Counted from the first letter of the stretch, positions 3,152-43,320 are shown. The stretch is 64,000 nucleotides of DNA from Flaccisagitta enflata (GCA_965153355.1 OZ231126.1:23126001-23190000); one strand, 5' to 3'. The notes: a model not told the origin generated them from the letters alone. Numbers and translations are program-made.

Positions 3152-4560
3152 ACTGGGACAAAAACATTCTCATGAGACAGGAGCACACAAACGAGCACAC
3201 AAATACAGACAGACTGGAAAACTGAAAAAAAGAATAAAGATGGACAGCAGGACAGATATACGACGAACAGATAAACAAATACACAAACATGAGTATGACA
3301 TGGTGACCTTTCTGACTTCTTTTATTTATTTCTGGGCATTCGGCAACCAACTTTTTTCAACTACGAAAGTTTTTGTTTAAACAAGGCCAACAACTATAAG
3401 TCGCGTGCACACACACACACACACACACATACACACAAAATGAATGAATGAAATGAGGAGAAAGAAAAAACTGAAAAAAACAAAAACAATTTTACGATTT
3501 TTTTTCCGGTCGGCGAGAAGCCGCCTTTACTGGTATCTTACATCGAGAGAGGATGCATCTATTGGTCATCTCTTGGCCTTGTTTTGTTCTAATCTATTAA
3601 AAAAATCCCTCCAAACAAACTTTAGGGGGTAATAGTTGCAAAAGCGTTAGATGGTAAGCGGTACCCGTGCCCTGCCTAAGTTGGTTGTGGTTGAAGTTGG
3701 GGGGGGGGAGCAGGGCAGCGGCGAAGTCGATGGCCTATGCTTTCACACATATAGGGTTTTCTCCTCCTCTCTCACCTCCGTCCCCCCTCCAAATCCCAGT
3801 CCGGACCAAATCCCGTGTGAGGCTCAAGTCCAGCCTCAAGGCCCAAATCCTAGCCTCAAGGCCTAAATCCTAGCCTGGAGGCTGAGATTTGGGGGTTCCA
3901 GGCCAGGATCTGGGCCTCTTGGCTGAGATTTTGAAGCTCAGGCTGAGTTGGGCTTCACGGCTGAAATCTGGGCCTCCAGGCTAGGATCTGAAGCCTTGAG
4001 GCTAGTTGCAACTTGTGTTGTTGGGCCTTGAGGCTGGGATTTGGGCCTCAAGATTAGGATTTGGGCCTCCGGACTGGGATTTGAGGGGGGGGGACGTAGG
4101 AGGAGGAGGGAGGAGGAGAGAAAATCCCCATATGTGTGAAAGCATGGGTCATGTTGCCCCTTCGGGGCCGCTGCCCAAAAGCAATTGAACAACAACTGTA
4201 GCCACATATATTTTTGAAGTTATAAATACAATTTGACTTTAAAAACACAAAAAAAAGAAATTTTGCCATTGTCAAACGATTTATTCCATATTTTTTTTCA
4301 TCTCTGCCATTAATTTGTAGCAAATGTGTCAGAAAAGATATTTCACCAGGCCAGAAGTCTTGACAATTTTAGACGGCGTGAGCAGAAAGGCAGTGGCTGC
4401 AAGTAGCGTCTTCTCAGTAATTGATAAACAGGTGTCTTTTAAAGCAACAAGGATATAAGTGATGATTTAAAACCACTATCATACAAAATGATGGACATCA
4501 TACAGGGTGTTCAGCATTTGCTCATTTAATTCCTTATGTGGAATGTCACACAGGCCATAC

Positions 4561-4633
4561 CTCTGACAGAAACGTTTGAGCTGCTTTTTGCGCCCCGACA
4601 TGGAGAAGGTATTCGTAGACGTACAATGCCAAT
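4561..4633 (-). CDS. Ssdp: Single-stranded DNA-binding protein Ssdp/SSBP2-4 family, LisH-domain internal exon (partial gene; downstream exons lie left of the window)
   Basis: Minus strand ttccag|A TTG GCA TTG TAC GTC TAC GAA TAC CTT CTC CAT GTC GGG GCG CAA AAA GCA GCT CAA ACG TTT CTG TCA GAG|gtatgg translates as (K/R)[24 protein letters not shown], the near-invariant Ssdp LisH segment. 73-nt exon with AG/GT borders. The next exon (IRWEKNITLG...) was not found in 1-4560. Confidence 0.93.
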
Positions 4634-4757
4634 CTGGAATTGGAAAAGAATGAAAGTCAATTGCTATGAATCCTACAAAGAAAAAAAAACAAGGACGAAA
4701 ACATGGCTTCCTAGTCACGAGCGGGTGGGCAGGGGCAGTTTGCTTAAAAACTCATAA

Positions 4758-5068
4758 AACAGCGTGCCCACGAAGGCAACATTTCGAGTGTAAACTTGGG
4801 TCAAAATGAACAATATGTAAGAGTGAAAAAAAAAATAAATGAATAAAAGTGTTTGAGACAAGACATACATGATATATGGCAGCAAATTTTGCATCCATTT
4901 AGCAAGAAACTCGGATTTGGCACAAATCATTGAAGAAGATTGACTGAAAATTTCTACAAATTTCTTTTTTTGTCCACTGGTCAAAATAGAAATTTGCATA
5001 GAAAATGAAGAAATGAAAAAAACGAAGAACGAAGTTCTCTTCCCAAATCGTTTTTCGAGAGAACTACA
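4758..5068. repeat. Dispersed repeat with an inverted second copy at about 18980-19300
   Basis: AGCGTGCCCACGAAGGCAACATTT...TCTTCCCAAATCGTTTT matches the reverse complement of 18996-19300. Confidence 0.65.
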
Positions 5069-6570
5069 GTTAAATCCCACTTCAACGGAATTCAGGGGAC
5101 TAACAAATTTGATTTTTTATAGGCGGAATTTAGTTATAGCCAATCAAAAAAAAAAAAAAAAAAAAAAAAAAACTGGTTGAAGGGTCAAAGAAATAGTATC
5201 TGATAAAGGCAGAATTCCGTTAGAAATGTGTTTGTTGGAGCGAAGTTCTACGGAACGTTTCTGAAAATACAAAATTTTTCTCTGTGTGGCTCTTCTACAA
5301 TTTTGATCCTGGAAAGCAGAATTTCACTAAAAACCTGTATTTTCCTTCCTTTTTCCATGAGAATTGCTTAACATTGCTGAATATAGGGCATGATACACAT
5401 GGTATAACCTTGCTCCAACGTACCTGCTTCTAACGGAATTCCGCCTAATCAAATTTGTTGATCACTTGAATTCCGTTGAATGACGTCACTTGAATGACGT
5501 CATACATCAAAACAAGGTCATTAGACCTAAGTCGCGTGCGTCGGCACTTTCGAAAAAAGTCAGGCAGACAGACAGACAGACACATAGACATTTTTTTCAA
5601 AAATACATTTGAAACAGCTGTTTAACTCTTGAAGTTTCTTTTCTACTATTCAGAGACTAAAAAAACGCAATAAAAAACCTTTAAAACCTTTTTGTGACGG
5701 ACCGGTCTGCGTCGGGGGTGGTTTTTAGCCACGGTGATGGTGGTACTAACTGACCGACTGAAAAGTGAAAAGGTTATAGAGTCGCGTAGCACGCGACTTT
5801 AAAAAGTGAAAAACGACCCTAATCGACTACATGAAATAATAGGGCCTTGGATACACGGCTACAAAGTCGCGTGCGGGTGGGCAGGGGCCATAATAAAGGT
5901 CTTTTTAACAACTGGGCAGGAGCAGTACGCAAAAACCGCCCGTAAACGCCAAAAAAGCTAACGGAGACGGACCGACCGACCGACCGACATAGCGGTTCAT
6001 GGAGTCGCGTAGCACGCGACTAAAGAGTCGCGTAACACGCGACTGAAAAAAAAGACGCACCTTTCTATAATTTGATGAAACATACACAAAAATTTATTTG
6101 ATCCTTTATCAGAAGTGATTTTGAAGATTTCCATGTGACTGCAAAAGCAAATTTGGCAATGTTTTGATTCAACACAATGCCAAACAAAAAAGATAGAAAT
6201 ACCATGTTGGCGCCTAATGAAATGAATTTTGGGCTTTCTAAGAGCCTAAGAGTTTCGTATTTCATTTTGCCGCACAACATCAGTCAAAGTAAAAGTCCTT
6301 TGATGGGAGAGGTGTGTAACAGCACATCATAAGTTTAAAGAGAATGCTATGAAGATTTATTTCAGCAATACTATTGGTAATGAGAATCGAGAAAAATTCA
6401 TCTTGTACCGAGGTACACCAAAACGTTCTTGCAAACACGCAAAAGCGAATGTTTATTTAGCTGAGATTGCGCTTTTGTTTGTGCTTAGAAGAAATCATGA
6501 TGCGCGCAAAATCTTCAGTAAACTTATTCGAATTGCGCGCGTTAATGGAAATAGAAAGTAGAAATTGTAG

Positions 6571-6850
6571 CAGGGGCGTAGGGGAAGGTACTGCCACTAC
6601 TGCCATTGCAGTACCTTTTGTTGGGACACCAAAGTTGTCGGACACTAATTTCTTCTAGAAAAAAAAAAGAGCAGGTAGAAGGAAATAAAAAAATGAAAAA
6701 AAAAAAGAAACAAAAAAGAGAAAAAAGGGAGAGAGAAAGCAAAATCAAGTTATTTGTTGTGAAACAATGGCAGTAATTATTGTTTTTTACAGTTTTAGGA
6801 CATAAGATACCGGTTAAGTTTCTGTTGGGACACTAGATTTGTTAGACACA
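6571..6850. mobile_element. Probable hAT element left-end fragment
   Basis: Starts CAGGGGCGTA like the hAT at 49466 and carries TTGGGACAC/TCGGACAC subterminal motifs. No matching right end was found. It abuts the truncated left arm of the palindrome. Confidence 0.4.
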
Positions 6851-7218
6851 GATTGGAGGGTGGCAATATGTGAATTCCTTGATGAGAGGTGTTTTGCCCA
6901 TTTGAATGCTGAGAAGGTATTTGGTAAAAGATTTTTTGACCAAATCCAGATCATTGTTGATGTTTCCAGACCATTCATCATCTACCATTCCATCAATGAA
7001 GTTGACCAGTGTTTTTTTTCTGTGTTGGTTGTTTTCTTCTCCATCATCTGAACCACAGACTTCACTATCATTTTCTTCATCTCCAGTTTCATCCTCGTCC
7101 TCCTCCTCCTCCTCCTCCTCCTCAATATCATCCATTGTTTTCCACTCTTGACTTTTTTGGTAGCATGTTGTTTGTGGGACGTTCTTGGATGTAAATGGAC
7201 GTTAGAGTAATGTCACTC

Positions 7219-8586
7219 CTATTTATAGTGAAAATGTTGCAACAAATCCGGGATCAAATCGGCATATTTGAGGAAAATTGGCTTCATCTTTAGCAATATG
7301 ACCTGCTCCATTTCACTGAATAGATTTTGAACACGAGCCATTCTTTTAGGATTCTTTTTAGCACTTTGATGTGATCTGTCAATGTCCAACGGAGCTTGAC
7401 ATGATGGTTGGCTGACATGCAGATTATTCATCAAATTGATCATACGTGCCAAAGACATCAATGTGAAAGAATTAGAGCTATTTTTTAACCAAGCCTTGAT
7501 GTCATTCTCTTGAAGAAATTGAGCCAATTGACAGGACTGCCAATCAATATCAATTGGCTCTCTTTCATCCGCACAACGAGTGGCATCTTTTCTTCGCAAG
7601 AAGTTTTCCGGAAGGAAGAAGTAGAAGGGCCATGAACCGCGTGTCATTTCTTGAGAGTCATCTTGCGATTGGATAGATTGCTGATTTTGATCCATGGCAT
7701 CTACAGTATGATTGTTTTCGTTTGTAACATTTCATGACGACATAATTCTTAAAGTAAGTGAAATAATTGAATTCTGAAAAAAGACTAAAAGACTATGAAA
7801 ATACATTTTATAACATATCGATCAAAGGATCTATTTAGAAAAATCTGATTCTCTTGTGAAAAAAATGAACTACAGGACCAACTTGACAAGTTGTAAAATT
7901 GAAAAATTTGAGAAAATTTAACAGATGGACTGTTTACCTTTAAATTGTTCTCATTTCTAAACGGTTTGAGCTACACATGCCAGATTGGTCTCAAATTAAA
8001 GATAATTTGATCTAGTTTTAAGGTTTTTCTGATGAATGCTTTGATTTGATGTTTTGGTCTGATTTATTAACTATAGACACATGCTTTTTTTTGTTAAATT
8101 TAAATATGATCTCTCATTTCTTTAATGTTTTGTATGATATGTGTTTCCAAACAGGTTTCTTTCTTTTTATTTTCTAAAACTACTTCAAATTATCTTTCAT
8201 TTGAGACCAACCTGGTATTTGTGGGTCAAATCGTTTAGAAATAAGAGCAATCCAAAGAAAAAAAGTTTATTTCAAAAACACAAAAAACAGTTTATTTTAG
8301 CCAAATATGCCTTACAACTAATAGTAAGAAATCTGGATCAAAATTTTGTTGAAAAGTCTTGGGATTTTGATATCATTAAATGTATTTTAAATATCTTTCA
8401 CTACCTTTTTTCAGAATATGATTATCTCAACAAGTTTTCAAGTTATGTCGTCATGAAATGTTACAAACGAAAACAATCATACTGTATTTGCCCACCATAG
8501 TGTTGAGTTAGTTCACCATGTTTGTATTTGATATGTTTGTCGAGCCTTACATAGAACTTGTTGCATTCTATACAATGGCCCTTCAT
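7219..8586 (-). pseudogene. ORF2 of the palindromic element, zinc finger plus unknown domain, interrupted by a MITE
   Basis: Removing 7704-8484 plus one TA joins 8586-8485 (MKGHCIECNKFYVRLDKHIKYKHGELTQHYGGQI) in frame to 7701-7219 (DAMDQNQQ...QHFHYK*), giving 194 aa. The TAG aligns with TGG in the right-arm copy, so the ancestral ORF probably continued into the acidic 6842-7135 frame. Confidence 0.65.
7704..8484. mobile_element. Tc1/mariner-type MITE
   Basis: ~42-bp TIR CAGTATGATTGTTTTCGTTTGTAACATTTCATGACGACATAA, TA on both sides; the empty site is visible in the right arm (gcaaaTAgatacc, about 10431-10443). Confidence 0.92.
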
Positions 8587-8762
8587 GATTTTTGCTGTTT
8601 TTCCAAGTATGAAACAAAAGTCTTCAAATGGGTAATAAGGGCAATTTCACAAGGTGTTGGCCTTTTGGCTTTCGTGCATGAATTGTTTCCGTGAATTCTG
8701 CGAATATGGCGGTCCAGACGAGCAAAATATTTATTTTCACAATGGGGGCAAGATCCTTTCAT
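8583..8762 (-). CDS. 59-aa ORF1 with C2H2-type zinc finger (element-encoded)
   Basis: MKGSCPHCENKYFARLDRHIRRIH...KQQKS*, CxxC-x10-H-x4-H. TATAAAA about 46 nt upstream (8808-8814). Its TGA overlaps the ATG of ORF2 (ATGA, 8586-8583). Confidence 0.55.
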   Translation of the reverse strand: MKGSCPHCENKYFARLDRHIRRIHGNNSCTKAKRPTPCEIALITHLKTFVSYLEKQQKS

Positions 8763-8849
8763 GTTTTCTTCAAAATAGTGAATGTTAAAATTCTCAATGT
8801 TTGACCATTTTATACCCTGAAAAAATTTTGATGGGGCAATCGGTGCGCA

Positions 8850-10065
8850 ATCCAAGGAAAAATGGAAATATCCAGGGAAAAGTTTAAATATCCAAGGAAA
8901 AATGGAAATATCCAGGGAAAAGTGGAAATATCCAGGGAAAAATGGAAATATCCAGGTGGAAAAATGGAAATATCCAGGTGGAAAAGTGGAAATATCCAGG
9001 TGGAAAAGTGGAAATATCCAACGGAAAAGTGGAAATATCCAAGGGAAAAGTGGAAATATCCAGGTGGAAAAGTGGAAATATCCAGGTGGAAAAGTGGAAA
9101 TATCCAAGGGAAAAGTGGAAATATCCAGGAAAGTGAAATGTCCAGGAGGAAAAATGGAAATATCCAGGGAAGAGTGGAAGTATCCTGGGAAGAATTGGAA
9201 ATGGTGGAAATATCCACTATTTCACTTTCAGAAAAATGAAATATCAGTGGAAAAGTTGAAATATCTAAGGGAAAAGTGGAAATATCCAAGGGAAAAGTAT
9301 GGAAATATCCATGGGAAAAGTGGAAATAGTGGAAATATCCACTATTTCCACTTTTCCTGGGAAAAGTGGAAATATCCAAGGGAAAAGTAGGAAATATCCA
9401 GGTGGAAAGTGGAAATATCCAGGTGGAAAGTACGATAATAAGGGAAAGTGGATGCTCCACCTGGATATTTCCACTTTTCTACCTGGATATTTCCACTTTG
9501 AAATGGATATTTCCACTTTTCCCATGGATAGTTCCACTATTTCCACTTTTCCCATGGATATTTCCACTGTTCCACTTGGATATTTCCATTTTCCCTGGAT
9601 ATTTCCAATTTTCCACCTGGATACGTCGACATTTCCCTGGATATTTGCACTTTTCCCATGGATATTTCCACTTTTCCCTGGATATTTCCACTATTTCCAC
9701 TTTTCCCATGGATATTTCCACTTTTCCTGGAAAAGTGGAAATAGTGGATAATTCTACTATTTCCACTTTTCCCATGAATATTTCCACTTTTCCCATGGAT
9801 ATTTCCTGTTCCACTTTGTGAATAACACTTTTCCACCTGGATATTTCCTTTTCCTTGGATATTTCCACTTTTCCGCTTGGATAATTTCACTTTTCCACCT
9901 GGATATTTCCACTTTTCCCTTGGATATTTCCTTTTTCCCCTTGGTCTTTCCACTTTTCCACCTGGATATTTCCACTTTTCCCATGGATATTTCATTTTCC
10001 ACCTGGATATTTCCATTTTCCTTAGATATTTCCACTTTTCCCTGGATATTTCCATTTTCCTTGGA
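8850..10065. repeat. Inverted minisatellite core, ~21-22-bp unit GGAAAAGTGGAAATATCCAG(GT/G)
   Basis: Dozens of units on + from 8850-9430 and their reverse complements from 9456-10065, with local nested hairpins at about 9315-9360 and 9700-9770. Confidence 0.95.
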
Positions 10066-10159
10066 TTGCGCACCGATTGCCCATCAAAATTTTTAGCAGG
10101 GTATAAAATGGTCAAACATTGAGAATTTTAACATTTAATATTTTGAAGAAAAAGAAAAC

Positions 10160-11574
10160 ATGAAAGGATCTTGCCCCCATTGTGAAAATAAATATTTTGC
10201 TCGTCTGGACCGCCATATTCGCAGAATTCACGGAAACAATTCATGCATGAAAGCCAAAAGGCCAACACCTTGTGAAATTGCCCTTATTACCCATTTGAAG
10301 ACTTTTGTTTCATGCTAGGAAAAACAGCAAAAATCATGAAGGGCCATTGTATAGAATGCAACAAGTTCTATGTAAAGCTCGACAAACATATCAAATACAA
10401 GCCTTATGAACTAACTCCACACTATGGTGAGCAAATAGATACCATGGATCAAGATCAGCAATCTATCCAATAACAAGATGACTCTCAAGAAATGACTCGC
10501 GGTTCATGGCCATTCTACTTCTAACTTCTAGAAAACTTCTTGCGAAGAAAAGATGCCACTAGATGTGCGAATGAAAGAGAGCCAATTGATATTGATTGGC
10601 AGTCCTATCAATTGGCTAAATTTCTTCAAGAGAGAGGCAGACATCAGGCAGTTAAAAAACAATTCTTTCATTGATGTCTTTGGCACGTATGATCAATTTG
10701 ATGAATAATCTGCATGTCAGCCAACCATCAGTCGAAACTCGTTGGACATGTGATCACATCAGAAGTGCTAAATCTAAAATGGCTCGTTTTCAAAATCTGA
10801 CCATTGAGTGGAGGCAGGTCTGGCTGCAAAGATGGCCAATTTTCCTCAAATGCTGATTGTCGATTTCACAGCATTTCACTATAAGTGGGGTGCTCAACGT
10901 CCGTACATCCACAAGCTCACGGCTGCATGCTACCAAAGTCAGAGTGAAAACAATAAGGATATTGAGGAAGGAAGAGGGAAGAGAAGGAAGGAAGTGAAGG
11001 ATGGAGGCTGGAGATGAAAATGATAGTGAACTGTGGTTAGTGGAGAAAAGGCAACCAGCACAGAAAACAGGCATAGTCAGCTTCATTGATGGAATGTGGT
11101 AGATGACAATGGTCTGGAAACATCAGCAATGATCTGGATTTTGATCAACTTTATCTGTCTCAGCATTCAAATAGACAAACCCTACTCATCAGGGCCACCA
11201 ACGTAATCTGAGAAAATCAGTGATGAAATGTGCAAAGCTTAGCTGACTAATGTGGAAAGAATGAAGATGAGATCCAAGAAGCGGCCTTTGAAACAACATT
11301 TGAATCCTTTGAACAACGATTAGAAGATGTGGTTCGTGAAATCTATCGACAGCGTCAAATGGAAGAAGATGAAAGCCAAGAGGAGGAAAACCCAGAAAAT
11401 GCTAATGGACAAGCAGGAAATGGCCTATGGAAAAGAAAACACAATAAGAAAAAAAGTCATAAGCCCTGCAGAGAGCAGAAAGTTCTTCGACCTTTGACAG
11501 AATTGGAGTTGTATCAATCTCACCTAGCACTTAATAAAACTTTCAAACAAATTTCATTGTTAACTTTTTTGTAA
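10160..11574 (+). pseudogene. Degenerate right-arm copy of ORF1/ORF2 plus extra 3' sequence
   Basis: ATG at 10160 and ATGA at 10336-10339. Premature TAG in ORF1, TAA in ORF2, then many small indels. Continues past the point where the left arm is truncated. TATAAAA at 10102-10108 and AATAAA at about 11646. Confidence 0.6.
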
Positions 11575-11861
11575 CTTTGTACCTTCATTGTCAAGATATA
11601 AGAATTTCATTATTTTTTGTTAACTGTTACTGCAACATAATATGAAATAAATAAGAATTTGTTTAATCCATGCCCTTTTTTTTTTTGCTTTACTCATTTG
11701 TAAATGTAGATAAAACCGATAGCTATGTACTTAACCCAGCAAAGAAGTTCTGTCTGCCCAAAGCAAATTTTATTGCTCTATCAAAAAGGTGTCAAAACTG
11801 GAGAGTCTTTTGTTTTAGTCTTGAAGAACAGGATGCATCGGACTCACAATCTTTTTACGAC

Positions 11862-12027: not shown

Positions 12028-12834
12028 GAGCAGAGACAGAGAGTTAAAGAGTTTGGTAGAAAAAGTAAAAGAGGGAGAAACAAGGCCGGATACACGGCTA
12101 CCCCAGTCGCGTGCGGGTGGGCAGGGGCCATAATTGAGGTCAGTGGAGCATTTGGGCAGGAGCAGTAAGGCCAAAAACCCCATTAACGCCGAAAAAGTAA
12201 AGTGTGACGGACGGACGGACCGACGGACGGACGGAGAGAGAGAGTTAAAGAGTTTGGTAGAAAAAGTAAAAGAGGGAGAAAAAAAAAAACATCCTTTTCC
12301 TCTTCCCCTCTATCAAAACGCAGTGGGAATACCCAGCCAATAGAATGTACCATTGCATTGCCTGGGCATTCCTTCACTGCTAACAATTAAGCAACATTTA
12401 ACCAACAATTAGCTAACATTACGGAATAAGGTCACACAGGTCACGGGAATAAGGTTACATTAAGTAGGTCATGGGCAATTAGGGGGTCATTAGGGGCAAT
12501 TAGCGGAGTCATTAGGGTCAATTAGGGGATCATTAAAGGCAATTAAGGGTCATTAACTAGGTCATTAATCTATTAGTTAATGACCTAATTAGGTCACGGG
12601 GTCAACTGTTTCAGGATGCCCCTTTCCCCATCTCTATTGAACATTGCGGAATATTTTGGAGCATTGTGGAACATTTTGGAGCATTATGGAACATTGCGGA
12701 ACATTTTGGAACATTGTGAAGCATTGTGAAAATTGTGTTGTGAAAATTGAGTTGTGGAAATTGTGTTGTGGAAATTGCGTTGTGGAATGTAAGATAGGAA
12801 AGAAAGGAGGGAGGAAGGAAGAAAGGAAACAGCA

Positions 12835-14640: not shown

Positions 14641-15268
14641 TGAAGTTGTGTAGTTTTGTGTAACTTAGCACGCGACTGTTGGCCTGTTGGGCTTGTTTAC
14701 TTCAAAAGTACTATGCTGATTCAATTTTTGGTGTTTCACTTATTTTTGGCCATTTTTGAAAATTTGCACGTAAATCTTATTTGTGGTTTTATATTTTTCA
14801 CTTATACAGTCAGCACTCTAACAAACATGTCTGTAAGGAAATTTACCTCTGAAAATAAAAGATTGCAGAATGTTCAAAACAAAATATTATGTAAGTCCCT
14901 TGAAGTTTGCTAGAATTCTTTTTAGATATAACTCACAAGTTTCCTTTGATAGATTAATGAAATTTAAACCCAACTTCTACTTTGCTCATAGACCCATTTT
15001 CTATTGCTTTTTTGAAAGAAGATTACAAATTTTGCTAATTTTCAGTTTTAGGCGTCTTTTAGGCGTCTAATGAAAATATCAAAATAAACACTGTTTTGAG
15101 AGCAAAAAAGGGATTTTCAGTACAAGGTCAGATACATGGCTACCCCAGTGACGTGCAGGTGGGCAGGGGCCACATTTGAGGTCACCAGAGCCTTTGGGCA
15201 GGAGCAGTGAGGTCAAAGAATTAAACAAGTGACGCAAGGTCACAAGATCATTGAGGATGGGTGGGCAG

Positions 15269-17236
15269 TAGCATGGGGGATCATGGCAAAAAATGGTCAG
15301 AGCCTTTATGTTCAGGAGATGTGCGCACCATTTCATGGTATAATGCACCAAAAATAATTTGGAGGTCGTCCGATGTTTGAAAGATGGCGCCGTCACCCCC
15401 CCCCCCCGAGTAAATTGGTGGTGGTGGTACAAATTTTGTTGTTTAAGGTCATTTTGACCTCAAAATTGGGCCACTTTGCCTTAAGAAAATGACAATAAAT
15501 CCATGAGATTATAAAAGTAGAGCTCAAGAGCTAACCAGTGGTGCAATCTGCATGTTTATATCGTAACCGGCTAAACCAGCCTACCACCCAACCATCCTAC
15601 CAGCCTGAAAGTGAAAAATGTGCATAATTATGTCGTTTTTCAACCGATTTGGTTAAAACTTGGTATGTGGTCTCTGACTGGAAGGACTCCACATATGAAT
15701 TCGATTTATAAAGATTTTAGCATGCTAACCATCCAAACCAGCCTACCACCCAACCAGTCTATCAGCCTAAAAGTGAAAAACGTGCATGACTTCAGCATTT
15801 TTCAATTGACATGGTTGAAAATTGGTATGTAGTCTCTGAATGGAAGGACTCAACATATGAATTTGATTCATAAAGATTTTAACATGCTAACCGGCCAAAC
15901 CAGACCACCACCCAACCAGCCTACCAGCCTAAAAGTGAAAAACATGCATAACTTTGTTATTTTTCAATTGATTTTGGTTGAAACTTAGTATAAAGTCTCA
16001 AAATGGAAAGACTCATCATATGTGTTAGATTTGTTAAGATTTTAGCATGCTTACCGACCAAATCGGCCTACCACCTAATCAGCCTACCAGCCTAAAAATG
16101 AAAAACCTGCATAACTTAAGCATTTTCAACAAATTTGGTTGAGACTTGGTATGTAGTCTCTAGATGGAAGGACTCAACATATGAATTTGATTTAAAAAGA
16201 TTCTAGCATGCTAACCCGCCTACCACCCAACCAACCTACCACCTTGTTCAAATTATGCACATTTATCACTTTGAAGGTGGTAGGTTGGTTGAGTGGTAGG
16301 CCGGTTAGCATGCTTAAATCTTTTTAAATCAAATTCATATATTGATTTCTTCTTTATAGAGAGCACATACCAAGTTTCAACCAAATTGGTTGAAAAATGC
16401 CAAAGTTATGCTCGTTTTTCACTTGTAGGCTTGTTGGGTGGTAAACCGGTTTGATCAGTTAGCATGCGAAAATCTTAACAAATCAAATACATATGTTGAG
16501 TCCTTCCATTTCAAGACTTTATACTAAGTTTCAACCAAATCAATTGAAAAATTACAAAGTTATGCACGTTTTTCACTGTTAGGCTGGTAGACTGATTGTG
16601 TGGTAGTCCAATTTGGCCGGTTAGTATGCTAAAATCTTTATAAATCAAATTCTTATGTTGAGTCCTTCCATTCAGAGACTACATACCAAGTTTCAAGCAA
16701 ATCAATAGAAAAATGCCAAAGTTATACACATTTTTCACTTTTAGGCTGGTAGGCTGGTTGGGTGTTAGGCTGGCTTGGCCGGTTAACATGTTAAAATCTT
16801 TATAAATCATATTCATATGTTGAGTCCCTCCATTCAGAGACCACATACCAAGTTTCAACCAAATCGTTTAAAAAATGCCAAAGTTATGCATGTTTTTCAC
16901 TTTTAGACTGGTAGGCTGGTTGGGTGGTGGGCTGGTTTGGCCGGTTTTGATAAAAACATGCAGATTGCACCACTGGTTAGCTCTTGAGCTCTAGTTTTAT
17001 AATCTCATAGATTTTTTGTCATTTTTCTAAGGCAAAGTGGCCCAATTATGAGGGGAAGATGATCTTAAACAACAAGATTTATACCACTTTACTCAGGGGG
17101 GGGGGGGGGTGGCGGCGCCATCTTCCCGACATCGGGCGACCTCCAAATTTTTTTTGGTGCATTATACCATGAAATGGTGCGCACATCTCCTGAACATAAA
17201 GGCTCCAACCATTTTTTGCCATGAACCCCCGTGCTA
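15269..17236. mobile_element. Non-autonomous hAT-like foldback element with ~162-bp internal subrepeats
   Basis: Termini TAGCATGGGGGATCATGGCAAAAAATGG / CCATTTTTTGCCATGAACCCCCGTGCTA, 8-bp TSD GTGGGCAG / GTGGGCAA. The whole element is palindromic about position 16258, with about four 162-bp units per arm. Confidence 0.88.
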
Positions 17237-20200
17237 GTGGGCAAGGGGTAGCCAATCCTCATCCACACCCAACGCCCCTCTTAACCCCCTTTCAACGCAG
17301 TCACTTACACAAAAAGCTTCTACAACACTCGTTTCCCCACTTTTCGACTCACACTCAAGGACCGTTGGACCAATGGACGGGCTGATGGCCCAATGGGCGG
17401 ACAAAGCCTCTTCTAAAGTTGCATGTCTGCAACTATAAACAAGAAAAATGTGACTGACTGAGAGACCAACCAATCAACCAGCTGATGTTTTTGATTTTAT
17501 TGGCCAATGATTGACTAACATATACTACAACTTTTTAAGGACCCCTCTGAAAAAAAATTGGGACGGGTGTTTTTTTTTTTTTTTTTTTTTTGTTTTTCGT
17601 TTTTTTTTTTTTTTTTTTTGGTTTTGAGATATTTTCAAATTTGCTACAAATTTACAAATGCATGTATTGACAAAAAATACAGTTCATTCTGCAATGGTCT
17701 CTTTTCTTCTTTTTCTTCTTCTTTTTTCTTTTTTGCAATCTTCTCGTTTCTTGTCCCAATATCTGTTACCTTTTACTCGCAAGCGGACCGGTGACTTTTT
17801 GCGTTGCTGTGCTGGTTGGTGGCTTGGTGCTGTTGTTGTTGATCTATCAGTGAGCTAGTTAGCGGCTTTATCATCCGATTCTTAACAAACGTTATCTTCT
17901 ATGGATTGAAGAAGCGGCAAATTTTGATGCAAGGAGTTAAATATTCTTGATCAAGAGTTAATGGCATTGTTTCTAAATGAGAGAGGGATCAGTTAAAAAG
18001 GAACAAGATACTAATAATAGGGCTGTACAATAAAATCACGTGCGCCCTCGAATCTCTGTAAGGCGGTGTGTTAGTCTGAAGGTCCATAAGACCATCACGC
18101 AAGTCAACACCCAACAATTATGCGGAAAAACATAGCACCCGCGATAGTTAATTCTAACTAGCCAGTAAAATAGTCAAAATTATCAAAATCCTGACAGTTA
18201 ACTCCAGGACAACAGCTAGTTAAACCAGGGAAAATGAGTAAAAATCACCAATTTTTCCTCAAATACGGAAACTTAAAAAGTACTGCAAGAAAGAGAAAAT
18301 CTATCATGAAAATACTTATTTTTAAAAGCATTGCTTGAAAGAAAAAATCATTCTACCAAAACGTTGCCATCGAGTAAATGAAAATTTTGACTATCATATC
18401 AATTTACAAGCGGAAATGACAAGTAGCTATTGACTAGTTGATCATGGGTAGGCACTGGGAGAATTGTGTTACGCAACTAATAACTAGTATGCTGAATGAA
18501 AAAAAGCCAAAATGCCAAAAGATATACTTCACTGACAAATATTTACATAAAAACTAAAAAGCTCATAGCTATGATGAGACGCTTCATAAAAAAAAAAAAG
18601 AAGTTACACGGGGTCACAATATCGGTACGGACGGGTGGGCAGGGGCATCCAACCCCCGTCCACAACCCATGCCCCCCCACCAACACATATACGACGTCAA
18701 ATCTGCCAGGGAAAAATTAACTGCTTCACCCCACTTTTGCATCAATAATGGACTAATCATCCATCCACAAATGGTTTCATTGCTCAAGTTGTCACTGGAT
18801 ACACTTGTTATGCCTGTCTGTTTCAGATTTTACGCTTTCAGTTGCCTTTTGATAAGCAATTCTCACGGCAAACGGCAAGAAACTGAAGATTTTTGGTAAA
18901 ATTTCGTTGACATTTTTTTCTATTTTCTGAGGTCGAAATTATAAGGAAGCCACAACCAAAAAAAATTTTGCATTTTCAAAAACATAGTCTCTCTAAAAAG
19001 GATTTGGGAAGAGAACTATGTTCTTTGTTTTTTCATTTTTTCATTGTCTATGCAAACTTATAATTTCGACCAACCCCCTGTCAGTGACAAAAAAGAAATT
19101 TGTCTAAATTTTCACTAAATCTTCCTCAATAACATAGGCGAAATCTTAGTCTCTTGCTGAATGGATGCAAAATATGCTTTCAAATATCATGCATGTCTTA
19201 TCTCAATCATTTTTATTCACTTGATTTTCTATTTTCACTCATTTATGTTTTCTATTTTGACCCATTTTGATACCCTAAATGTTGGCTTCGTGGGCACGCT
19301 TTCATTCCCAGACAGGTCGCCTAAGGGCGATATATCGTCAGCGATACCCGTTGCCCTGCTCTGCATGATAGTGAAATGGATCGAGAGGAAGCAGGACAGC
19401 GGCCCCAAAGGGGACGAAGTCCAGTAGAACACAAGGGACTTTCGTTCGTTTGTTCGTTCGTTTGTCCGTCTGTCCGTTCCCCCCAGGCCCTCTCAGGCCT
19501 TAAATCTACCCTCCCAGGCCTGAAATCTAACCTTTCAGGCCTGAAATTTACCCTCTCAGGCCTCGAGAGGGCAGATTTGATGAACTTTTTAATCCTTTGA
19601 TATACAGACTTGGGATTGGTCTAGAATGAAAGATAATTCAAAAATCTTCAAAATTACTTTGTTTGATAATCGCCCATGAGATTATTTTAAGCCATTTCAT
19701 TAGATACAGAAATGATACAATAGTTTTCCAAATTAGTATTTTATCATGTGGTCTAAATAGTGGTTGACTGTGACAGACTGCAACTTTTAAACGGTTTGAG
19801 ATACAGACATGGGATTGGTCTCGAATGATGGAAAATTCAAAAATCTTCAAAATCATTTTAATGGAGAACAGTTTTAACAATTTTTTTTCAGTCATTTCTA
19901 TCAACCATTGATGAGGTGTGTTTTTTTTCGCGTAGTATCATTATTGTTGAAATAGCTCTCGATATCACATGAGTACCTCATAATCAGGAAGCTCTACCCT
20001 GTCGTCAGAACCCGGCCTATTCACAAAACGCACGATGGTCGATTTGATTTTTTCTTTGTTTCTTCGATAAGTCACCCCAGTGACGACTATGAGTAAAAGG
20101 ACAATGGCACTAATGAATCCCAGCAGATTCCTTGGGAAAGAATCTAAGGGAGCGCAACTGTAATCATATTTGGTATAATTTTCCCCCTGTTTTTCCTGCA

Positions 20201-20934: not shown

Positions 20935-21255
20935 TTTAGCTGTGTCAACACACTGTTTATTGGCTGTGTCAACACCACTACTTATGGTTGTATTAACACT
21001 TGGTCATCTTAAAACCTCTTTGGAATTGTGTCAATACACCAATTTTTGTAAGTGTCAACACGCCCATTTTTGTAAGTGTCAACATGCCCATTTTTGTAAG
21101 CGTCAACACAACCGTTTTTGTAAGTGGCAACACACCCATTTTTCCTTGTGTCAACACATTCATTTGTAGTTGCTTCATCGACTACAATTTTGATTGTGTT
21201 GAAGCGCCCTTTCTTACTAGTGTCAACAGGCCCCATTTCAGTAGTGTCAACATGC
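20935..21255. repeat. 24-bp minisatellite GTGTCAACACACCCATTTTTGTAA
   Basis: GTGTCAA-like starts at 21028, 21052, 21076, 21100, 21124 and 21148, plus degenerate flanking units. Confidence 0.8.
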
Positions 21256-22659
21256 TCTTTTTGGGCAGCTGCTTCAAACCTGGTCTTTCAGACCTCAAAC
21301 CAGCCATCTAAGCCCCTATTTTATGCCTCATGTCAGCCCTCTCAAGCTTCCAATTGGCATTCTCAGGCCTTACATCAGCCTTCTTAGACCTCAGTTTAGG
21401 CTCTTGAAGGCCTTCAGTCAGCCCTCTATAGCATCTCATCCACTTCAGGCAAGTCCCCCTGTGTTCTACAGGACTTCGTCCCCTTTTGGGCTGCTGCCCT
21501 GCTTCCCCTCACTCCAATTCACAATCACGCAAAGCAGGTCAACACGTATCAATGACCATATATTGCCCTTGGGCGACCTGTTGTTTGTCCGTGCGTCCCC
21601 CCAAGGCCTTCTCAGCCCTGAAATCAGCTCTCTCAGAACTAAAATCTACCCTCTCAGGCCTGAAATCTGCCCTCTCAGGCCTTGAATCTGCCCTCTCAGG
21701 CCTGAAATCAGTCAACTTAGGCCGAAAATCTTCCCTCTCAGACTCTAGGTCTGAGAGGGAAGATTTCAGGCCTGAGAGGGTAGATTTAAGGCCTGAGAGG
21801 GCGGAGTTCAGGGCTGAGAGGGTCTGAGGGGCGGACAGACAGATGGACGAAAGAATGGACGCACAAATGAAAGTCCCCCTGTATTCCAAAGGACTTTGTC
21901 TCCTTCAGGGCCGCTGCCCTGCTTCCCCCATTCCAATTCAGAATCATGCAAAGCAGGGCAACGGGTATCGCTGACCAGATATTGCCCTACATATTGCCCT
22001 TGACCATGCAGAAGCCCTCTGGGCCCCCTGAGGCCCAGGCTCCTATAATTTGTATAGGGTGTATAGGCCTCTACAGGCCTCTGCTGCTCTCACTCTACTT
22101 CTTCAGCTGATCACAATACACAACAGGTATCGCTGACCATATGCAATCGTTGGATGACTTGCTTATTGCTGCCCCTGCCCACCAGCACGCAACTAGGTAG
22201 CTATGTCTCTGGCCTTATTCTTAAGCATAATAAGGATTCATCGCATTCCTCCTCTGGAGTATGCTAGTGGTTTTCAGTCGCATGCTACGCAACTCTACAA
22301 CCCTGTCTATCCATCCAACTATGGGGCTTTTGGGCGTGCCGCTCCTGCCCAAATGCTCCCCTGACCTCAAATATGGCCCCTGATCAGCCACACGCAACTG
22401 GAGGTAGTTGAGGATTGGCTTCTCTAAAAAAGGCTTTGTCCATCCATCTGTCTGTCCATCAGTCTGTGTGCACAAGTGGAGAAAACAGGCATTTCCGCTC
22501 CTGCCCACCCGTCTGCGACATGCATTGGTTGTGTATCCAGCTTTGTTTTTTTTCTTTGTCAAAACAAATCCATTTCTTGACAATACAAGAATGGGTGCTT
22601 CAAGAACAATCTTTTTTTGCATTTACCAAACGCTAATAAGTGGTGTTTCCTTACTTCAC

Positions 22660-25616: not shown

Positions 25617-26477
25617 CAAGAGATCAGAGGTCTGATATAAGATTAAACCTCGGGGGTCGCTCAGGGTTTTCCCAGATTGGTTGAGGTTGCAATCCCCAAG
25701 CAACCCCAAATGAACGAAAGGCAACCCTAAGGCAATCCCGAGGCAACCCCAGGCAACGATGAGAAATTCCCAGAGTACAAACATAACAGACAAACCTCAA
25801 GACAATATTCTAAGAAAAACAATGAATATAATATAATTATAACAAGGCCGGATACACGGCTACCCTAGTAGCGTGCGGGTGGGCAGGAGCAGTGCTAGAG
25901 AAGGTAACTAGGGCATCTGGGCAGGAGCCATATGCTCAGAAAGCTCAAAAAAGCCGAAAAAATTAATAGTCGCAAAAGCGTTAGATGATCAGCGGTACCT
26001 GTGCCCTGCTTAAGTAGGTTGTGGTAGAAGTTGAGTGGGGAGCAGGTCCCAAAGGGGTCGATGACCTGTACTTTCACACATATGGGGAATTTATTTCTCC
26101 TTCTCCTTCTTCTTCTCCTTCTCCTTCTCCTTCTCCTCCTCCGCACCCCCTCTCCCCCAAGCCTCAAGGCCCATATCTCAGCCTCGAGGCTCATATCCCA
26201 GCATCAAGGCCCAAATCCCAGTCTTGAGGCCCAAATCCCTTGAGGCTGGAATTAGGGCCTTAGGGTTGGGATTTGGGCCTCAAGACTGGGATCTGGGCCC
26301 AGGAGGCTGGGATATGGGCCTCGAGGTTGAGAAATGGGCCTCGAGGCTTGGGGAGGTACAGGAGGAGGAAGGAGGAGAAGAAGAAGGAGAAGGAAGGAAA
26401 TTCATGTGTGGCATAGGTCATCGACCTGGGGCTGCTGCCCAAAAGGGACCAACCAACCGACCAACCCACAACCCACC

Positions 26478-27010
26478 CACTATGACTCAGATCAGCCCAG
26501 CTAAAGAAAATTCCCATACCCAGCCTCTAACCACCCAGCAACCACCCCAAAAGGCTCAAACCGCCTTCACTATGACTCAGATCAGCCCAGCTAAAGAAAA
26601 TTCCCATACCCAGCCTCTAACCACCCAGCAACCACCCCAAAAGGCTCAAACCGCCTTCACTATGACTCAGATCAGCCCAGCTAAAGAAAATTCCCATACC
26701 CAGCCTCTAACCACCCAGCAACCACCCCAAAAGGCTCAAACCGCCTTCACTATGACTCAGATCAGCCCAGCTAAAGAAAATTCCCATACCCAGCCTCTAA
26801 CCACCCAGCAACCACCCCAAAAGGCTCAAACCGCCTTCACTATGACTCAGATCAGCCCAGCTAAAGAAAATTCCCATACCCAGCCTCTAACCACCCAGCA
26901 ACCACCCCAAAAGGCTCAAACCGCCTTCACTATGACTCAGATCAGCCCAGCTAAAGAAAATTCCCATACCCAGCCTCTAACCACCCAGCAACCACCCCAA
27001 AAGGCTCAAA
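26478..27010. repeat. Perfect 90-bp tandem repeat, ~5.9 copies
   Basis: TATGACTCAG at 26481, 26571, 26661, 26751, 26841 and 26931; the units appear identical. Confidence 0.97.
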
Positions 27011-27769
27011 ATGCTTATTTTACATTAGATATTGTGCGGACTCCTTCAAGCAAATCAATGCGATGTTCTTCTCTGTTGCTCTTCTTTTGGTCTTTATCTT
27101 TTTACAATGTCTGGTAATTGCTAGAGCTGTGGAGCAAGTGAGCGGAGCGAGTGGTGCGAGCGAACAAATGCCGTGAGTGACTAAGTGGCCCATTAAAACG
27201 CTTGTCTGTGAGTGAAAACACACCCTCTCTCTCTGGCTATCTCTCTCATGTTTTTCAATGTTATTCAATGGGAATCATGCAATTTTTCACCTTTTTGTTA
27301 ATTTTCTATGTTTTTCAATGGGAAGTTTGTATTTTGTCAATTTCCCAATTTCCCAAGTTATTCATTGGGAACTTGAGGCTTGAGAAGCGGGGGGGGGGAG
27401 ACATACGTATGGACGGACGTACGGACGTCTTAAAATTCACCCCTGTGTCCTAAAGGAAATCGGCCCTTTGGGGCCGCTGCCCAAAAAGGGGACCAACCAA
27501 CCGACCGACCGACCGACCGACCAACATAGCGGGGTATAGAGTCGCGTAGCACGCGACTAAAAAAACGGACAATAACATGACTACAAATTCGGGAACAAAT
27601 GAACGCACGAACGAACATATGAAACAAGGCCGGAAATATGGCAGGACAGTCGCGGACGGTTGGGCAGGGGCTGTAAAACGACAGCCGCTCGCAATTCAAA
27701 AAAATTTGAGATGAAAACAAAAAACTAATGAACGATGAATCAAGTAGAAAATTGACAATGGTGGTTGTT

Positions 27770-40699: not shown

Positions 40700-41953
40700 T
40701 TAAACGTGATTTCCGCTGACTGCCTCGTCATAGTTGGGTGGTAGGTCCACGTCACCCGCGTCAATTACGTCACCGACCATCGCGCCATGTTCGGAGACGA
40801 CAGGAACGCCACCGATGGCGCAGCCGCCGGCTTGATCATTTTTGAACGCTGGCGTCGCTGATGAAGTGACAAAATAGATTTCGTCGGTGCGGTCGTCATC
40901 GTCGTGAGCGCAGCAGCAACCGCCGCAGCAACTGCAAGCGTCGTCTTGACGAATGGCGATGGAAGCGGCGACGATGCCCCAAATGGAAAAGCAGAAGTGA
41001 AGCGCGGCGGTAGTGGTCACGAGGAAGTGGAATGCAAACAACGATCCATCGTATCCTACGTATCCATCATCAAAGCGAGCATTCACAAGGGCAGCGGCGG
41101 AGATAGCCAATTCCGTTGAACATAGCGCGAGTTGAAGGATGTTTAGAACCAAGAAAGAGATCAGCGATGAGTTTTCGCCGAATCTCCACGCGCGAAAACC
41201 GCAAAAGGCGGCGAGCAGATAAACTGGTGCGCACCACAATGACATCCCCATTCGCTGTAGATGGAGCGAACGGTGATCGTCATCGTCGCTTTGCACGCCA
41301 TAAGCGACGATGAAGAGAATGATGCAAGCGGCGACGGCGGAAACGATTGTCGACGCCAGCTGACTGATCCAATTGAAGCGCAGGGAATTGTTGCGAGCCT
41401 TGACGTTGCTGTGGACTTCCGGCAGCGTTGTGGCTTTGACACTGTCGCCGCATCCTTCACGATGAAGCGCCTGGGAAGTGATGACGATAGCCCAAACGAC
41501 GGCAAAAAGCTCGGCGAACGCGGCGAGAATCGAAGCGGACAACATGAATACCGCGATTCGATAATCGCTCTCGGAGCAAACTGGTGTGACGTGGTACCCG
41601 CAGCGATAAATGTGCTCTTTTACAGCATACTCAAAGATGACGAAGTAAAAAAATGCTGCGCCGAAGGTGACGTTGAGGACGGCGAGAACCAATGCGCCGA
41701 TGGTGCAACAAAAGTTGCGTTTGTATCCGGCAATAAACATGACGATGCCGCCGGTGACGAAAAGCATGCCACACCACCCGCCGGGACAAAAGGCTAACAA
41801 AGCGGAATTGTGCCATTTTTCGGCATGAAATACGGAGAGGCCGATGCCAAATGCCATGGCAATCACTCCAGCGACAATCTGGATGATGCCATTGATAATG
41901 GCAGCCTTTGAGCTCAGAGCCATGTAAGGAACGCCACAACTCCCACTACACAT
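40700..41953 (-). CDS. Intronless 417-aa multi-pass membrane protein with two tandem MS4A/CD20-like 4-TM units
   Basis: Long GC-richer ORF with about 8 hydrophobic segments. Unit 1: GIIQIVAG...GGWCGMLFVTGG...LVLAVLN. Unit 2: QLASTIVS...SLWCAPVYLLAAFCG...FLVLNIL. Juxtamembrane CSCCGGCCC and C-terminal LPPNYDEAV (PPxY). Confidence 0.88.
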   Translation of the reverse strand: MCSGSCGVPYMALSSKAAIINGIIQIVAGVIAMAFGIGLSVFHAEKWHNSALLAFCPGGWCGMLFVTGGIVMFIAGYKRNFCCTIGALVLAVLNVTFGAAFFYFVIFEYAVKEHIYRCGYHVTPVCSESDYRIAVFMLSASILAAFAELFAVVWAIVITSQALHREGCGDSVKATTLPEVHSNVKARNNSLRFNWISQLASTIVSAVAACIILFIVAYGVQSDDDDHRSLHLQRMGMSLWCAPVYLLAAFCGFRAWRFGENSSLISFLVLNILQLALCSTELAISAAALVNARFDDGYVGYDGSLFAFHFLVTTTAALHFCFSIWGIVAASIAIRQDDACSCCGGCCCAHDDDDRTDEIYFVTSSATPAFKNDQAGGCAIGGVPVVSEHGAMVGDVIDAGDVDLPPNYDEAVSGNHV

Positions 41954-43320
41954 CTTCTTGCCGTCTTAGTTTTTCATGATTGTTTAAGGATGATATGATT
42001 TTAGTTAGTCTTTATTTTGCTTGATTTCTTTCTCTTTTTGTTTAGTGGTAGAACAGTCGTTTTTGCCTTGAAATAAATGAGTATGGGATATGAGGAATTC
42101 AATTTGATATTTGGATTTAGTGACTAAACTTTTTCAGTTCCCTTGAGGTCGTTAAATCGGGTTTCCCGCTGTACTTTAATTCCTTATTACGACGAGTTTA
42201 CAACCCCTGACCATGCCAAAGATTTTCTTTTTTTTTGTTTGAATTTCATGAAAATCGAATGATCGAAATGGTAATTCAAAAAGACGTAGACTAACATGTT
42301 TGACGGCTTTGTGTTGAGATCAAAATTTTTAGTTGCGGACACGCAAATCTATAGGAGGATTTGTCCGTCCATCAGTCCGTGCGTCGATCCGTTGGTCCAT
42401 CCTTGATGATTTAGTCGAAAAGTGGAACAGGTCACCAAAGGGCATTTCCTCTGTCTGTTCGTCCATGTGTCTCTCCATATATGTTGCATGTTAAGCGCCA
42501 TACACACAGACACAGTCCGGATGCATCGTTGCCTGGTCGGGCTGGTTTATCTGATAACTAAATCGGGTTCTAATTTGGCATACTTTTATCCACCTTGCAT
42601 AAATATAGTTTGTCCAAGTCAAGACATCTACTATATTGATCTTCTACACTGTCTTTAAATCGGTTTGACTTTTAGTAAACCTTCATAACTTGAAAGCTAT
42701 CATAAGAAAAGTCTTCAAATTTTCAGTGTATGTAGGAGTATGCTCTATTTTACTTCCTTATTCTAAATGATTGAGGATACATAAAGCAAATTACGCTCAT
42801 CTTGTAGATTTTTAGTCAAGTGGACCCAACTCTGTAACCTACTATTTCCATTGGATAGATGGTGGGTAGCTTTACTGTTTCAACGTTTATGGGCGTTTTT
42901 TGCACAACTGCCCCTGCCCAAATGCGCAGCTAGCCTTTTATAGAAATCATTAATGTAATCATTGATTAAAAAACACCTCATCTGATATTTAACGATTCCC
43001 CATACAATAATTCATTGAATATCTAGTTGATAAAATATTTCATACCACAGGTATACAGTAGATGTCGTCTATACTTGGAAATACGGGGGCCCTCATATCC
43101 TAATTGCCATTTGTGCAAATGAAATGAAACTATGTGTGTATAATGCTTATGTCCCATGAGGTTGACGATGGGGTATTGCAGCTCTGTTAATAGAAAATTC
43201 TTTTGAATTTACTAAATCAAATTCGCTTGACATTCAGTCTCTGGAATTGGTCTAGTAGTTAACTCACTTGACTTCAGGTTTATCTTGATCAGTTTATTTA
43301 GTCAAGGGTTCCAGGTTTAA

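Follow-up and report, generated by a model that had tools for sequence, protein, structure and literature searches.

A decayed palindrome in Flaccisagitta enflata DNA, probably an inverted duplication of an undescribed compact cassette

The 64,000-nucleotide stretch of Flaccisagitta enflata DNA analysed here (GCA_965153355.1 OZ231126.1:23126001-23190000, one strand; the window, to which all positions refer) contains a palindrome in which two copies of a compact unit with three open reading frames (ORFs) stand head to head on either side of a short-repeat array. We consider it probable, though well short of certain, that this locus arose when one member of a compact, high-copy and so far undescribed cassette in the genome of a marine animal was duplicated head to head. 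As a structure the palindrome is of a known kind, the decayed inverted duplication of a repeat, and it is the cassette and its two protein families that are without a name in any library searched. An earlier note on this DNA had offered two interpretations. One, an undescribed element that was duplicated in inverted orientation or inserted twice head to head, fits, and the unit is compact, multi-copy and without a match to a described family; the other, the integrated terminal junction of a virus-like element, has found no support.

The inverted repeat described in that note is present in the assembled sequence, with its left arm at 6877-8856 and its right arm at 10056-11194 around a 1.2-kb central array. 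An inverted-repeat search pairs 8485-8770 with 10152-10437 (286 nt, 97% identity), 7506-7703 with 10436-10633 (198 nt, 92%) and 7402-7463 with 10669-10730 (62 nt, 100%). Direct blastn comparison of the arms gives 94.5% identity over the innermost 379 bases and 78.9% over the outer 844, and blastn of each arm against the 64-kb window finds its partner as the sole match and no third copy. The two arms form a head-to-head pair, as had been claimed, but they are unequal: the left one carries a miniature inverted-repeat transposable element (MITE) and loses its match to the family at 6869, and the right one retains a 3' tail.

The central array (8856-10066) has a repeat period of 20-22 bp. With up to 2 mismatches allowed, a 12-mer search locates 23 forward monomers at 8862-9409; after them come 25 reverse monomers, most of them at 9463-10044, and in a few places the orientation flips locally. 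When no more than 1 mismatch is allowed, the window as a whole has 20 matches in forward and 19 in reverse orientation, all within 8800-10100 except the one at 61057. The half with forward monomers (8856-9427, + strand; consensus GGAAAAGTGGAAATATCCAGG, ~23 copies) contains small local flips, for example at 9314-9357, and the variant order of the half with reverse monomers (9456-10066, + strand; ~25 copies) mirrors it. Even a small internal flip is mirrored between the halves, 9300-9364 pairing with 9722-9786 at 92% identity. The axis itself is a non-palindromic spacer of ~28 nt (9428-9455), which is left unpaired when the 151 nt of 9380-9530 are folded as DNA; the halves pair up to the spacer (-46.5 kcal/mol, z = -11.3), and 0 of 200 shuffled sequences fold as well. 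The hairpin GTGGAtgcTCCAC, earlier placed at the centre, does exist, but at the edge of this spacer and not on the axis. The core of the monomer, GGAAATATCC, is nearly its own reverse complement.

Arm-to-arm identity, given by right-arm position, is 98-99% at 10155-10354, 91-92% at 10355-10554 and ~70-77% at 10741-11163, and this outward fall fits conversion between the arms near the centre. An inverted duplication of this type would have begun with a broken or stalled end that folded onto itself, or changed template, at short inverted repeats of the array; the near-self-complementary monomer core and the local flips would have supplied the fold-back sites, and the ~28-nt spacer would be what was left over. 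The arms would then have decayed, with conversion keeping the parts near the centre 97-99% alike while the outer parts eroded.

As read from its bases, one unit is a cassette of ~1.8-2 kb comprising, in order, the 21-22-bp array, a TATA box, ORF1, ORF2, a second TATA box, ORF3 and an AATAAA. The outward order array, TATAAAA, ORF1 that had been noticed earlier is confirmed on both arms (TATAAAA at 10102, its reverse complement at 8808), and the right arm does run on to an AATAAA at 11646. The ATG of ORF1 lies ~50 nt past the first TATA box, and the ORF1 stop overlaps the ORF2 start (ATGA). Both ORFs begin with the same type of finger (MKGxCxxC...RLDxHxxxxH), and ORF1 consists of this zinc finger alone, without the C-terminal domain. 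ORF2, 194 amino acids (aa) long in intact relatives, starts with a C2H2-like finger, which an acidic linker connects to a helical domain of ~130 aa. Its last codons and stop spell TATAAATAG. This forms the second TATA box, and ORF3 starts 61 nt downstream of it with MLPKKSEWKTMDD; judged by position, both TATA boxes would act as promoters. In ORF3 (~214 aa in intact forms) an acidic N-terminus leads into a helical core (FIDGMVDDEWSG...LIKEFTRKY...FEQRLEDVVREIYRQ), and the C-terminal stretch is basic. The acidic tract had previously been assigned to ORF2, which proved wrong: ORF2 stops after HFHYK (stop at 7219), as its relatives do, and the tract opens the separate, conserved ORF3.

The unit recurs in independent sequencing data. 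Words of the stretch are also found in runs of organism A and in marine-metagenome runs from several studies (maximum 0.30 of sampled words per run), and we compared four runs with it: X11 (a metatranscriptome), X1, X2 (organism A) and X24 (polyA RNA), whose contigs come from other samples. A 1520-nt contig of X11 reads from 8874 to 8485, continues without the MITE from 7701 to 6869, and then passes into sequence like 11256-11497; it is a whole unit, including the tail that is missing from the left arm. This contig extends upstream of the TATA box, and its depth (9.3) is like that of the MITE contigs in the same run (7.9-35), so it is no proof of transcription. A 974-nt contig of X1 likewise joins 7134-7701 to 8485-8861 without the MITE. 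Word depth in X2 is 6148-8002 for unit contigs and 85-326 for single MITE-variant contigs, and in X1 the ratio of unit to MITE-variant depth is ~1:1 (47 versus 10-57). On these figures the unit is a high-copy repeat in X2.

The left arm (6869-8860, - strand) is one unit copy ~99% like the abundant family form, broken by the MITE, a 1-base insertion and a 3' truncation. Contigs of X1, X11 and X2 match it with few differences; against record 1 of the X1 contigs it shows 6 differences and 1 gap over 7134-7701 and 1 difference over 8485-8861. Its first TATA box (8808-8814, -) stands ~50 nt upstream of the ATG of ORF1 (8583-8762, -; zinc finger MKGSCPHCENKYFARLDRHIRRIH...), whose stop overlaps the ORF2 start. 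The length of 59 aa first reported for ORF1 holds for this arm; in the right arm it is 52 aa. ORF2 starts with its N-terminal zinc finger, MKGHCIECNKFYVRLDKHIKYKH... (8485-8586, -; 91% identity to residues 1-34 of the relative P0019), and resumes beyond the MITE with linker and helical C-terminal domain, ending HFHYK-stop (7219-7701, -; 86% identity to P0019). The second TATA box, TATAAATA (7220-7227, -), overlaps the final ORF2 codons and stop (Y-K-stop). What remains of ORF3 (6842-7166, -) has its ATG at 7166 (MLPKKS...), a frame shift at 7148, and then the acidic tract and the FIDGMVDDEWSG...LIKEFT region, and it matches P0061 at 86% identity over 7045-6869 (tblastn). The extra base at 7148 is missing from all other contigs that cover the position (4 in X2, 1 in X1 and 1 in X11). 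The match to the family breaks off at 6869, where other copies read on as ...RKYEKEIKLM. A 35-nt direct repeat (6616-6650 and 6820-6854, 77%) adjoins this break and may belong to whatever truncated the arm.

The insertion of 783 bp that interrupts the ORF2 linker of the left arm (7702-8484, no strand assigned) was seen as a gap in the arm alignment with TA at both ends. It has terminal inverted repeats (CAGTATGATTG...; inverted ends of 88 nt, 84%), a TA duplication (7700-7701 and 8485-8486) and largest internal ORFs of 37 and 42 aa with no transposase ORF among them, the features of a Tc1/mariner-type MITE; the TA duplication we take to be that of Tc1/mariner. The empty site, a joint from 7701 to 8485 that skips the 783 bases, is present in contigs of X2, X1 and X11. 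Splicing of the insertion as an intron was rejected, since the candidate GT..AG sites, read by eye, would shift the frame by one base. The MITE family is very abundant, many different contigs of X2, X1 and X11 matching it (summed depth up to 252,875 in X2), and a partial copy lies elsewhere in the window at 58704-58762.

The right arm (10056-11800, + strand) is the second and more decayed unit copy, recognised from the arm alignments and the X11 contig, and has the full 3' tail. Its first TATA box (10102-10108, +, read from the sequence) is followed by the earlier-ending ORF1 (10160-10318, +) and by an ORF2 pseudogene (10336-10885, +) that has 2 in-frame stops within 10336-10632 and then a change of frame (tblastn); the second TATA box is mutated to TATAAGTG. 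ORF3 (10927-11574, +) is likewise a pseudogene, with stops and frameshifts in its first half and a C-terminal part, 11269-11574, that is still open; it is 63% identical to the intact relative P0111 over 11053-11532. The AATAAA polyadenylation-type signal lies at 11646-11651 (+), and a second AATAAA at 11533. To judge from these lesions both copies are dead pseudogenes, and the locus itself apparently now does nothing. The tail of the right arm (11256-11497) has 9 differences in 242 bases from the X11 contig (96% identity) and no gaps; the right arm is therefore a mosaic, its tail 96% like the family and its middle only ~75% identical to the left arm. This suggests extra conversion from other family copies, or poor sequence in the intervening patch.

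The two units might instead be independent cassette copies that came to stand head to head by a double insertion, or by recombination between array-bearing copies, an origin we regard as unlikely. In its favour, the arms carry different lesions and differ by 1-25%, the tail of the mosaic right arm is nearer the family consensus than its middle, the left arm is ~99% like the abundant form, and an internal array order shared by every copy would mimic the mirrored order. Nevertheless, identity peaks (98-99%) beside the array and falls outward, which fits conversion in a true palindrome, and the array halves are collinear in mirror image with the small internal flip included. Nor were defined element ends or a target-site duplication found in the window, where the left arm is truncated at 6869 and the right arm has no defined end.

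Duplication of a single member followed by decay, the reading we prefer, has several observations against it. A mosaic right arm is not predicted by a single duplication followed by decay. Its patch at 10633-11199 has 56 indel runs (39 deletions and 17 insertions) compared with 3 in 10056-10632, and mismatches in the patch are about as many as indels, an unusual ratio for plain decay; such an indel-dense patch could mean a poor consensus sequence or a mosaic origin. The axis (9428-9455) is bridged by no contig of the four runs, and depth in the bin 9384-9557 is low (295 in X2, 0.14 in X1 and 0 in X11). One X2 contig does join a forward to a reverse monomer (9401 to 9659, depth 1168), with a shorter side of 22 nt that falls under our 31-nt rule, and it was not counted as a bridge. 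The ends of the MITE in this ORF and the break at 6869 are also bridged by no contig of the four runs, and 10428-11123 is without a contig at >= 95% identity in any of them. None of 12.2 million raw polyA RNA reads of X24 (~6% of the run, organism A) fell on the stretch, which is no test of expression. Finally, the fold searches with ORF2 and ORF3 (below) found nothing above noise.

Several of these points are shared with the possibility, to which we give only a small probability, that the palindrome is an assembly or library artefact, made by a chimeric or fold-back long read or by a false join in the array, with part of the right arm left unpolished. No independent contig crosses the axis or covers 10428-11123, and the patch at 10633-11199 has ~1 indel run per 10 bases, mostly deletions, with sharp borders; A<->G changes make up 29 of 48 mismatches in 10701-11260. 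Raw long-read error resembles the patch both in its indel density and in this A<->G excess. The arms, however, are not one locus copied, since the MITE is only in the left and the tail only in the right, and the indel-free 10355-10554 differs by 8-9%. Several deletions span 5-8 nt, with lengths reaching 19 nt when aligned by MAFFT, and one of them is bounded by short direct repeats, which looks natural. The A<->G excess falls in the purine-only acidic-tract region, where base composition can explain it, and in other parts of the window long ORFs are intact, among them one of 421 aa at 40700-41965. A bias towards A>G changes like that left by ADAR (19 A>G versus 3 T>C in 10701-11260 of the right arm) was considered in its own right and set aside, since the tract is purine-only and the alignment gap-filled.

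A phmmer search with the ORF2 core as query against 1,835,955,588 representative proteins returned 13 at E <= 0.001 (12 at 1e-10 and 4 at 1e-30), with lengths of 97-369 aa; nine of the 13 are full-length and end like ORF2 (7/9 in YK), and the other four are fragments. Members of their clusters come from ENA, Logan, MGnify or JGI assemblies (one from NCBI), a functional name is attached to none of the 10 clusters looked up, and their contigs are mostly 0.5-6 kb long, with one truncated 53-aa member on a 25.8-kb contig. Profile searches brought up two further intact forms, P0066 (194 aa), which stands for 129 members clustered at 90% identity, and P0067 (201 aa), which stands for 35; the 12 listed members of the P0066 cluster are full-length except for one 187-aa form, and few of their residues differ from left-arm ORF2. 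Other intact relatives of 194 aa include P0073 and P0078. The ORF3 family, also by profile search, has 22 proteins at E <= 0.001, and P0111 (214 aa) heads a 90%-identity cluster of 137 members. The longest contigs among the listed members of the P0066 and P0111 clusters are ~2.0 kb. ORF2 and ORF3 thus represent two small unnamed families of predicted proteins, met only as ORFs of marine metagenome and transcriptome contigs. Searches aimed at other collections gave no relatives among 73 pattern matches for the single protein P0019 in JGI metagenomes, and none among 16 for P0066 in prokaryote genome contigs.

The arm matches no described family in protein and Pfam searches, as the earlier note had supposed. 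No Pfam family reaches threshold for ORF1-3, for the intact relatives P0066, P0067, P0111 and P0104, or for three ORFs of the distant relative L001 (below), whose ORF2 homologue was covered in the scan through the near-identical P0059. Ligands C5, C8, H18 and H23 of the zinc finger hardly vary among the 13 family members and form the Cys-X2-Cys...His-X4-His set. The Cys-to-His spacing is 9 residues, and that of a classical C2H2 finger is 12; the Pfam zf-C2H2 threshold is missed (zf-C2H2_4 E = 0.61, 11.4 bits versus a cut-off of 27; zf-POGZ E = 0.1). AlphaFold2 predicts a beta-beta-alpha finger (strands 3-5 and 10-12, helix 15-23; block predicted local distance difference test [pLDDT] 82-85) within a moderate ORF2 model (pLDDT 63.8, predicted template modelling score [pTM] 0.45), in which the finger is confident, the linker disordered and the C-terminal domain five-helix.

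Structure comparison placed neither protein. The ORF2 profile has 0 matches at E <= 1 among 177,635 PDB sequences; Foldseek with the AlphaFold model gave a best E of 0.85 in PDB and 0.36 in BFVD and nothing at E <= 0.001; and VIA-align (wide) gave 0 of 48,161 chains at Z >= 5. The best VIA-align match, a LuxR-type helix-turn-helix domain at Z = 4.2 (root-mean-square deviation 4.7, 59 residues), is under noise level, and further helix-turn-helix DNA-binding regulators at Z = 3-4, also below noise, serve as a lead only. With the poorer ORF3 model (pLDDT 59.4) no chain reached Z >= 8, and the best score, Z = 6.5, does not rise above the noise expected of helical models. In the ESM Atlas the clusters nearest P0066 are unnamed hypothetical proteins commonest in Arthropoda or Chordata (scores 0.91-0.93), again a lead only. 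The ORF2 C-terminal domain was also considered as the SAM-like core-binding domain of a tyrosine recombinase (Crypton-like), a candidate that Pfam and fold searches do not support.

On the simplest hypothesis, intact ORF2 most likely binds DNA, and the repeat array is the obvious candidate for its site: ORF2 has a C2H2-like finger and a helical domain, and the repeats lie directly upstream of its own putative promoter. ORF3, acidic and helical, would act as its partner. Prediction of an ORF2-ORF3 complex scored 0.00, which is no evidence either way.

A profile scan of JGI metagenomes gave a single relative among 294 pattern matches, the 4.6-kb contig L001, which carries an ORF2 homologue of 388 aa with 34% identity across the conserved domain, then an ORF3 homologue on the same strand (244 aa), and downstream two more ORFs of 179 and 132 aa, neither with a Pfam family. 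Its ORF2-ORF3 spacer (1749-2022) holds two 141-bp repeats, each with CTATAAAAGG, and the putative ORF3 promoter region appears to be duplicated there. Upstream of its ORF2 homologue a 15-bp repeat (TTGGAATATTTTCCT) occurs three times, together with a 19-nt box; these 15-bp repeats and box at 279-372 recur inverted at 4497-4601, 91-97% complementary, and the contig ends inside the right-hand array. The L001 monomer resembles that of the window (GGAATATTTTCC versus GGATATTTCC). The ORF2-ORF3 order and the inverted short-repeat arrays are shared with L001 and are therefore old features of the family.

Such an organization is also what might suggest the fossil hairpin-end junction of a linear virus-like replicon, or some other endogenous viral element, which we consider very improbable. 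The ORFs are tightly packed and intron-free, with an ATGA stop/start overlap and a TATA box within a stop region; the array lies between divergent promoters; and L001 has inverted short-repeat arrays on both sides of four ORFs. Viral enhancer and origin regions resemble a repeat array between divergent promoters. Evidence of a virus is nonetheless missing where it was sought. A profile scan of IMG/VR for ORF2 gave 0 relatives among 53 pattern matches, and an 18-mer of the array occurs there only as single copies in three viral contigs, with no array. BFVD gave 0 fold matches at E <= 0.001 (above), weak evidence given the moderate ORF2 model. In window 1-27117 the ORFs of at least 130 aa outside simple repeats and the array are 262-756, 4715-5116, ORF2, 21245-21685, 21432-21827, 22221-22622 and 26065-27117; apart from the overlapping pair at 21245-21827, which was outside the scan, none has any Pfam hit at E <= 0.01, viral hallmarks (capsid, polymerase, integrase or Rep) included. 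The same scan took in ORF1, ORF3 and a 70-aa ORF at 6349-6558, and three L001 ORFs were likewise without a hit. The 13 relatives among 1.84 billion representatives are all <= 369 aa, with no functional name in the clusters looked up, and the flanks are ordinary animal repeats.

As the earlier note had reported, no transposase, reverse transcriptase or Rep domain is found by Pfam in the ORFs scanned; in particular, no foldback transposase (P/THAP, MULE or other DDE) was found by Pfam in ORF1-3, P0066, P0067, P0111, P0104 or three L001 ORFs. It is conceivable, if improbable, that the cassette is nevertheless a self-propagating element of a new kind, in which ORF2 would recognise the 21-22-bp repeats as a cis site (origin, enhancer or recombination end) with ORF3 as acidic partner, and which would amplify without a known transposase, reverse transcriptase or Rep, the junction being a fossil replication or recombination intermediate. 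The cassette family may otherwise be a mobile element without a recognised enzyme, a tandem host gene family or the non-autonomous part of a larger element.

The inverted duplication that we favour lies in ordinary repeat-rich animal DNA. The only clear host genes in the window are a trypsin-domain exon (60277-60777, -; E = 1.4e-8) and a CD20-like ORF (40700-41965, -), the single-exon 421-aa frame mentioned above, with two CD20-like stretches (Pfam E = 1e-6). Its repeats comprise short interspersed element (SINE)-like repeats, many microsatellites and satellites, and Rfam gives 0 matches over the whole window. SINE-like repeats of ~150 bp with a (GACG/GACC)n tail lie at 5865-6012 and 12085-12235, the second flanked by a ~44-bp direct repeat (12040-12083 and 12240-12284), and similar translated motifs occur elsewhere in the window. 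A 90-bp tandem repeat (26478-27010; 5.9 copies, 100% identity) lies inside a 350-aa frame (26065-27117, +) with no Pfam family, and a 20-bp satellite, CAGACGGAATCGCGAGTCTA, occupies 43881-45134 (~63 copies, 93% matches). A second, unrelated palindrome of ~2 kb is found at 15266-17239, with unique outer ends at 15266-15407 and 17098-17239 (92%) that read CAGTAGCATGGGGG..., four copies of a 162-bp tandem repeat per arm and a 28-nt spacer (16246-16273); by its anatomy it looks like a classical foldback-type non-autonomous element.

The interest of the locus lies in the cassette, which has two candidate promoters, three ORFs and two conserved protein families without a name, a Pfam domain or a match to a solved or viral structure, and which recurs in marine metagenome and metatranscriptome runs from several studies. 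Sequences of this sort crowd the protein catalogues of marine metagenomes as ORFs without an explanation and, being so compact, can be mistaken for viral ones. A true selfish element of this form would be without every known mobility enzyme; in a true host gene family, the copy number and the array-linked promoters would be worth explaining. Keyword searches of the literature that did not use the organism name returned nothing on such a cassette, which does not show its absence from print.

Among known systems, the regions flanked by divergent early genes in baculoviruses, the homologous (hr) regions with their immediate early (IE) genes, are viral enhancer/origin repeats. They are like our locus in having an array with imperfect palindromes between outward TATA promoters for small zinc-finger and acidic proteins; they differ in that no sequence or fold relation of the cassette to viral proteins was found and that it lies on an animal chromosome rich in repeats. 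Foldback-type DNA transposons (Drosophila FB, Galileo and Tetris) likewise carry long inverted repeats made up of short tandem units, and for Tetris such arrays are reported to be able to seed satellite-like DNA (PMC4079207). The inverted arrays that flank the ORFs of L001 are like theirs, whereas at our locus the arrays are central and the genes outside, so that the arrays do not look like terminal repeats, and Pfam shows no transposase domain in the ORFs scanned. Ampliconic palindromes, for instance those of primate Y chromosomes, also hold a multi-copy gene family in inverted duplication, with arms that are apparently kept alike by conversion (PMC4772468). Here, in contrast, the arms are ~2 kb and not tens to thousands of kb, they are 75-99% identical, both copies are dead, and the axis falls within an array of short repeats. 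Short inverted repeats give rise to palindromes, and that of Tetrahymena ribosomal DNA is of the fold-back or hairpin-capped type. For fold-back or hairpin-capped palindromes of yeast, E. coli and tumours the comparison differs in that the mechanism proposed here is drawn from anatomy alone, with no break, intermediate or polymorphism observed. The anatomy itself is alike: these too are head-to-head dimers with a short non-palindromic centre and adjoining short inverted repeats, and palindrome formation at such repeats is treated in three reports (PMC4981268, PMC3315005, PMC10164571).

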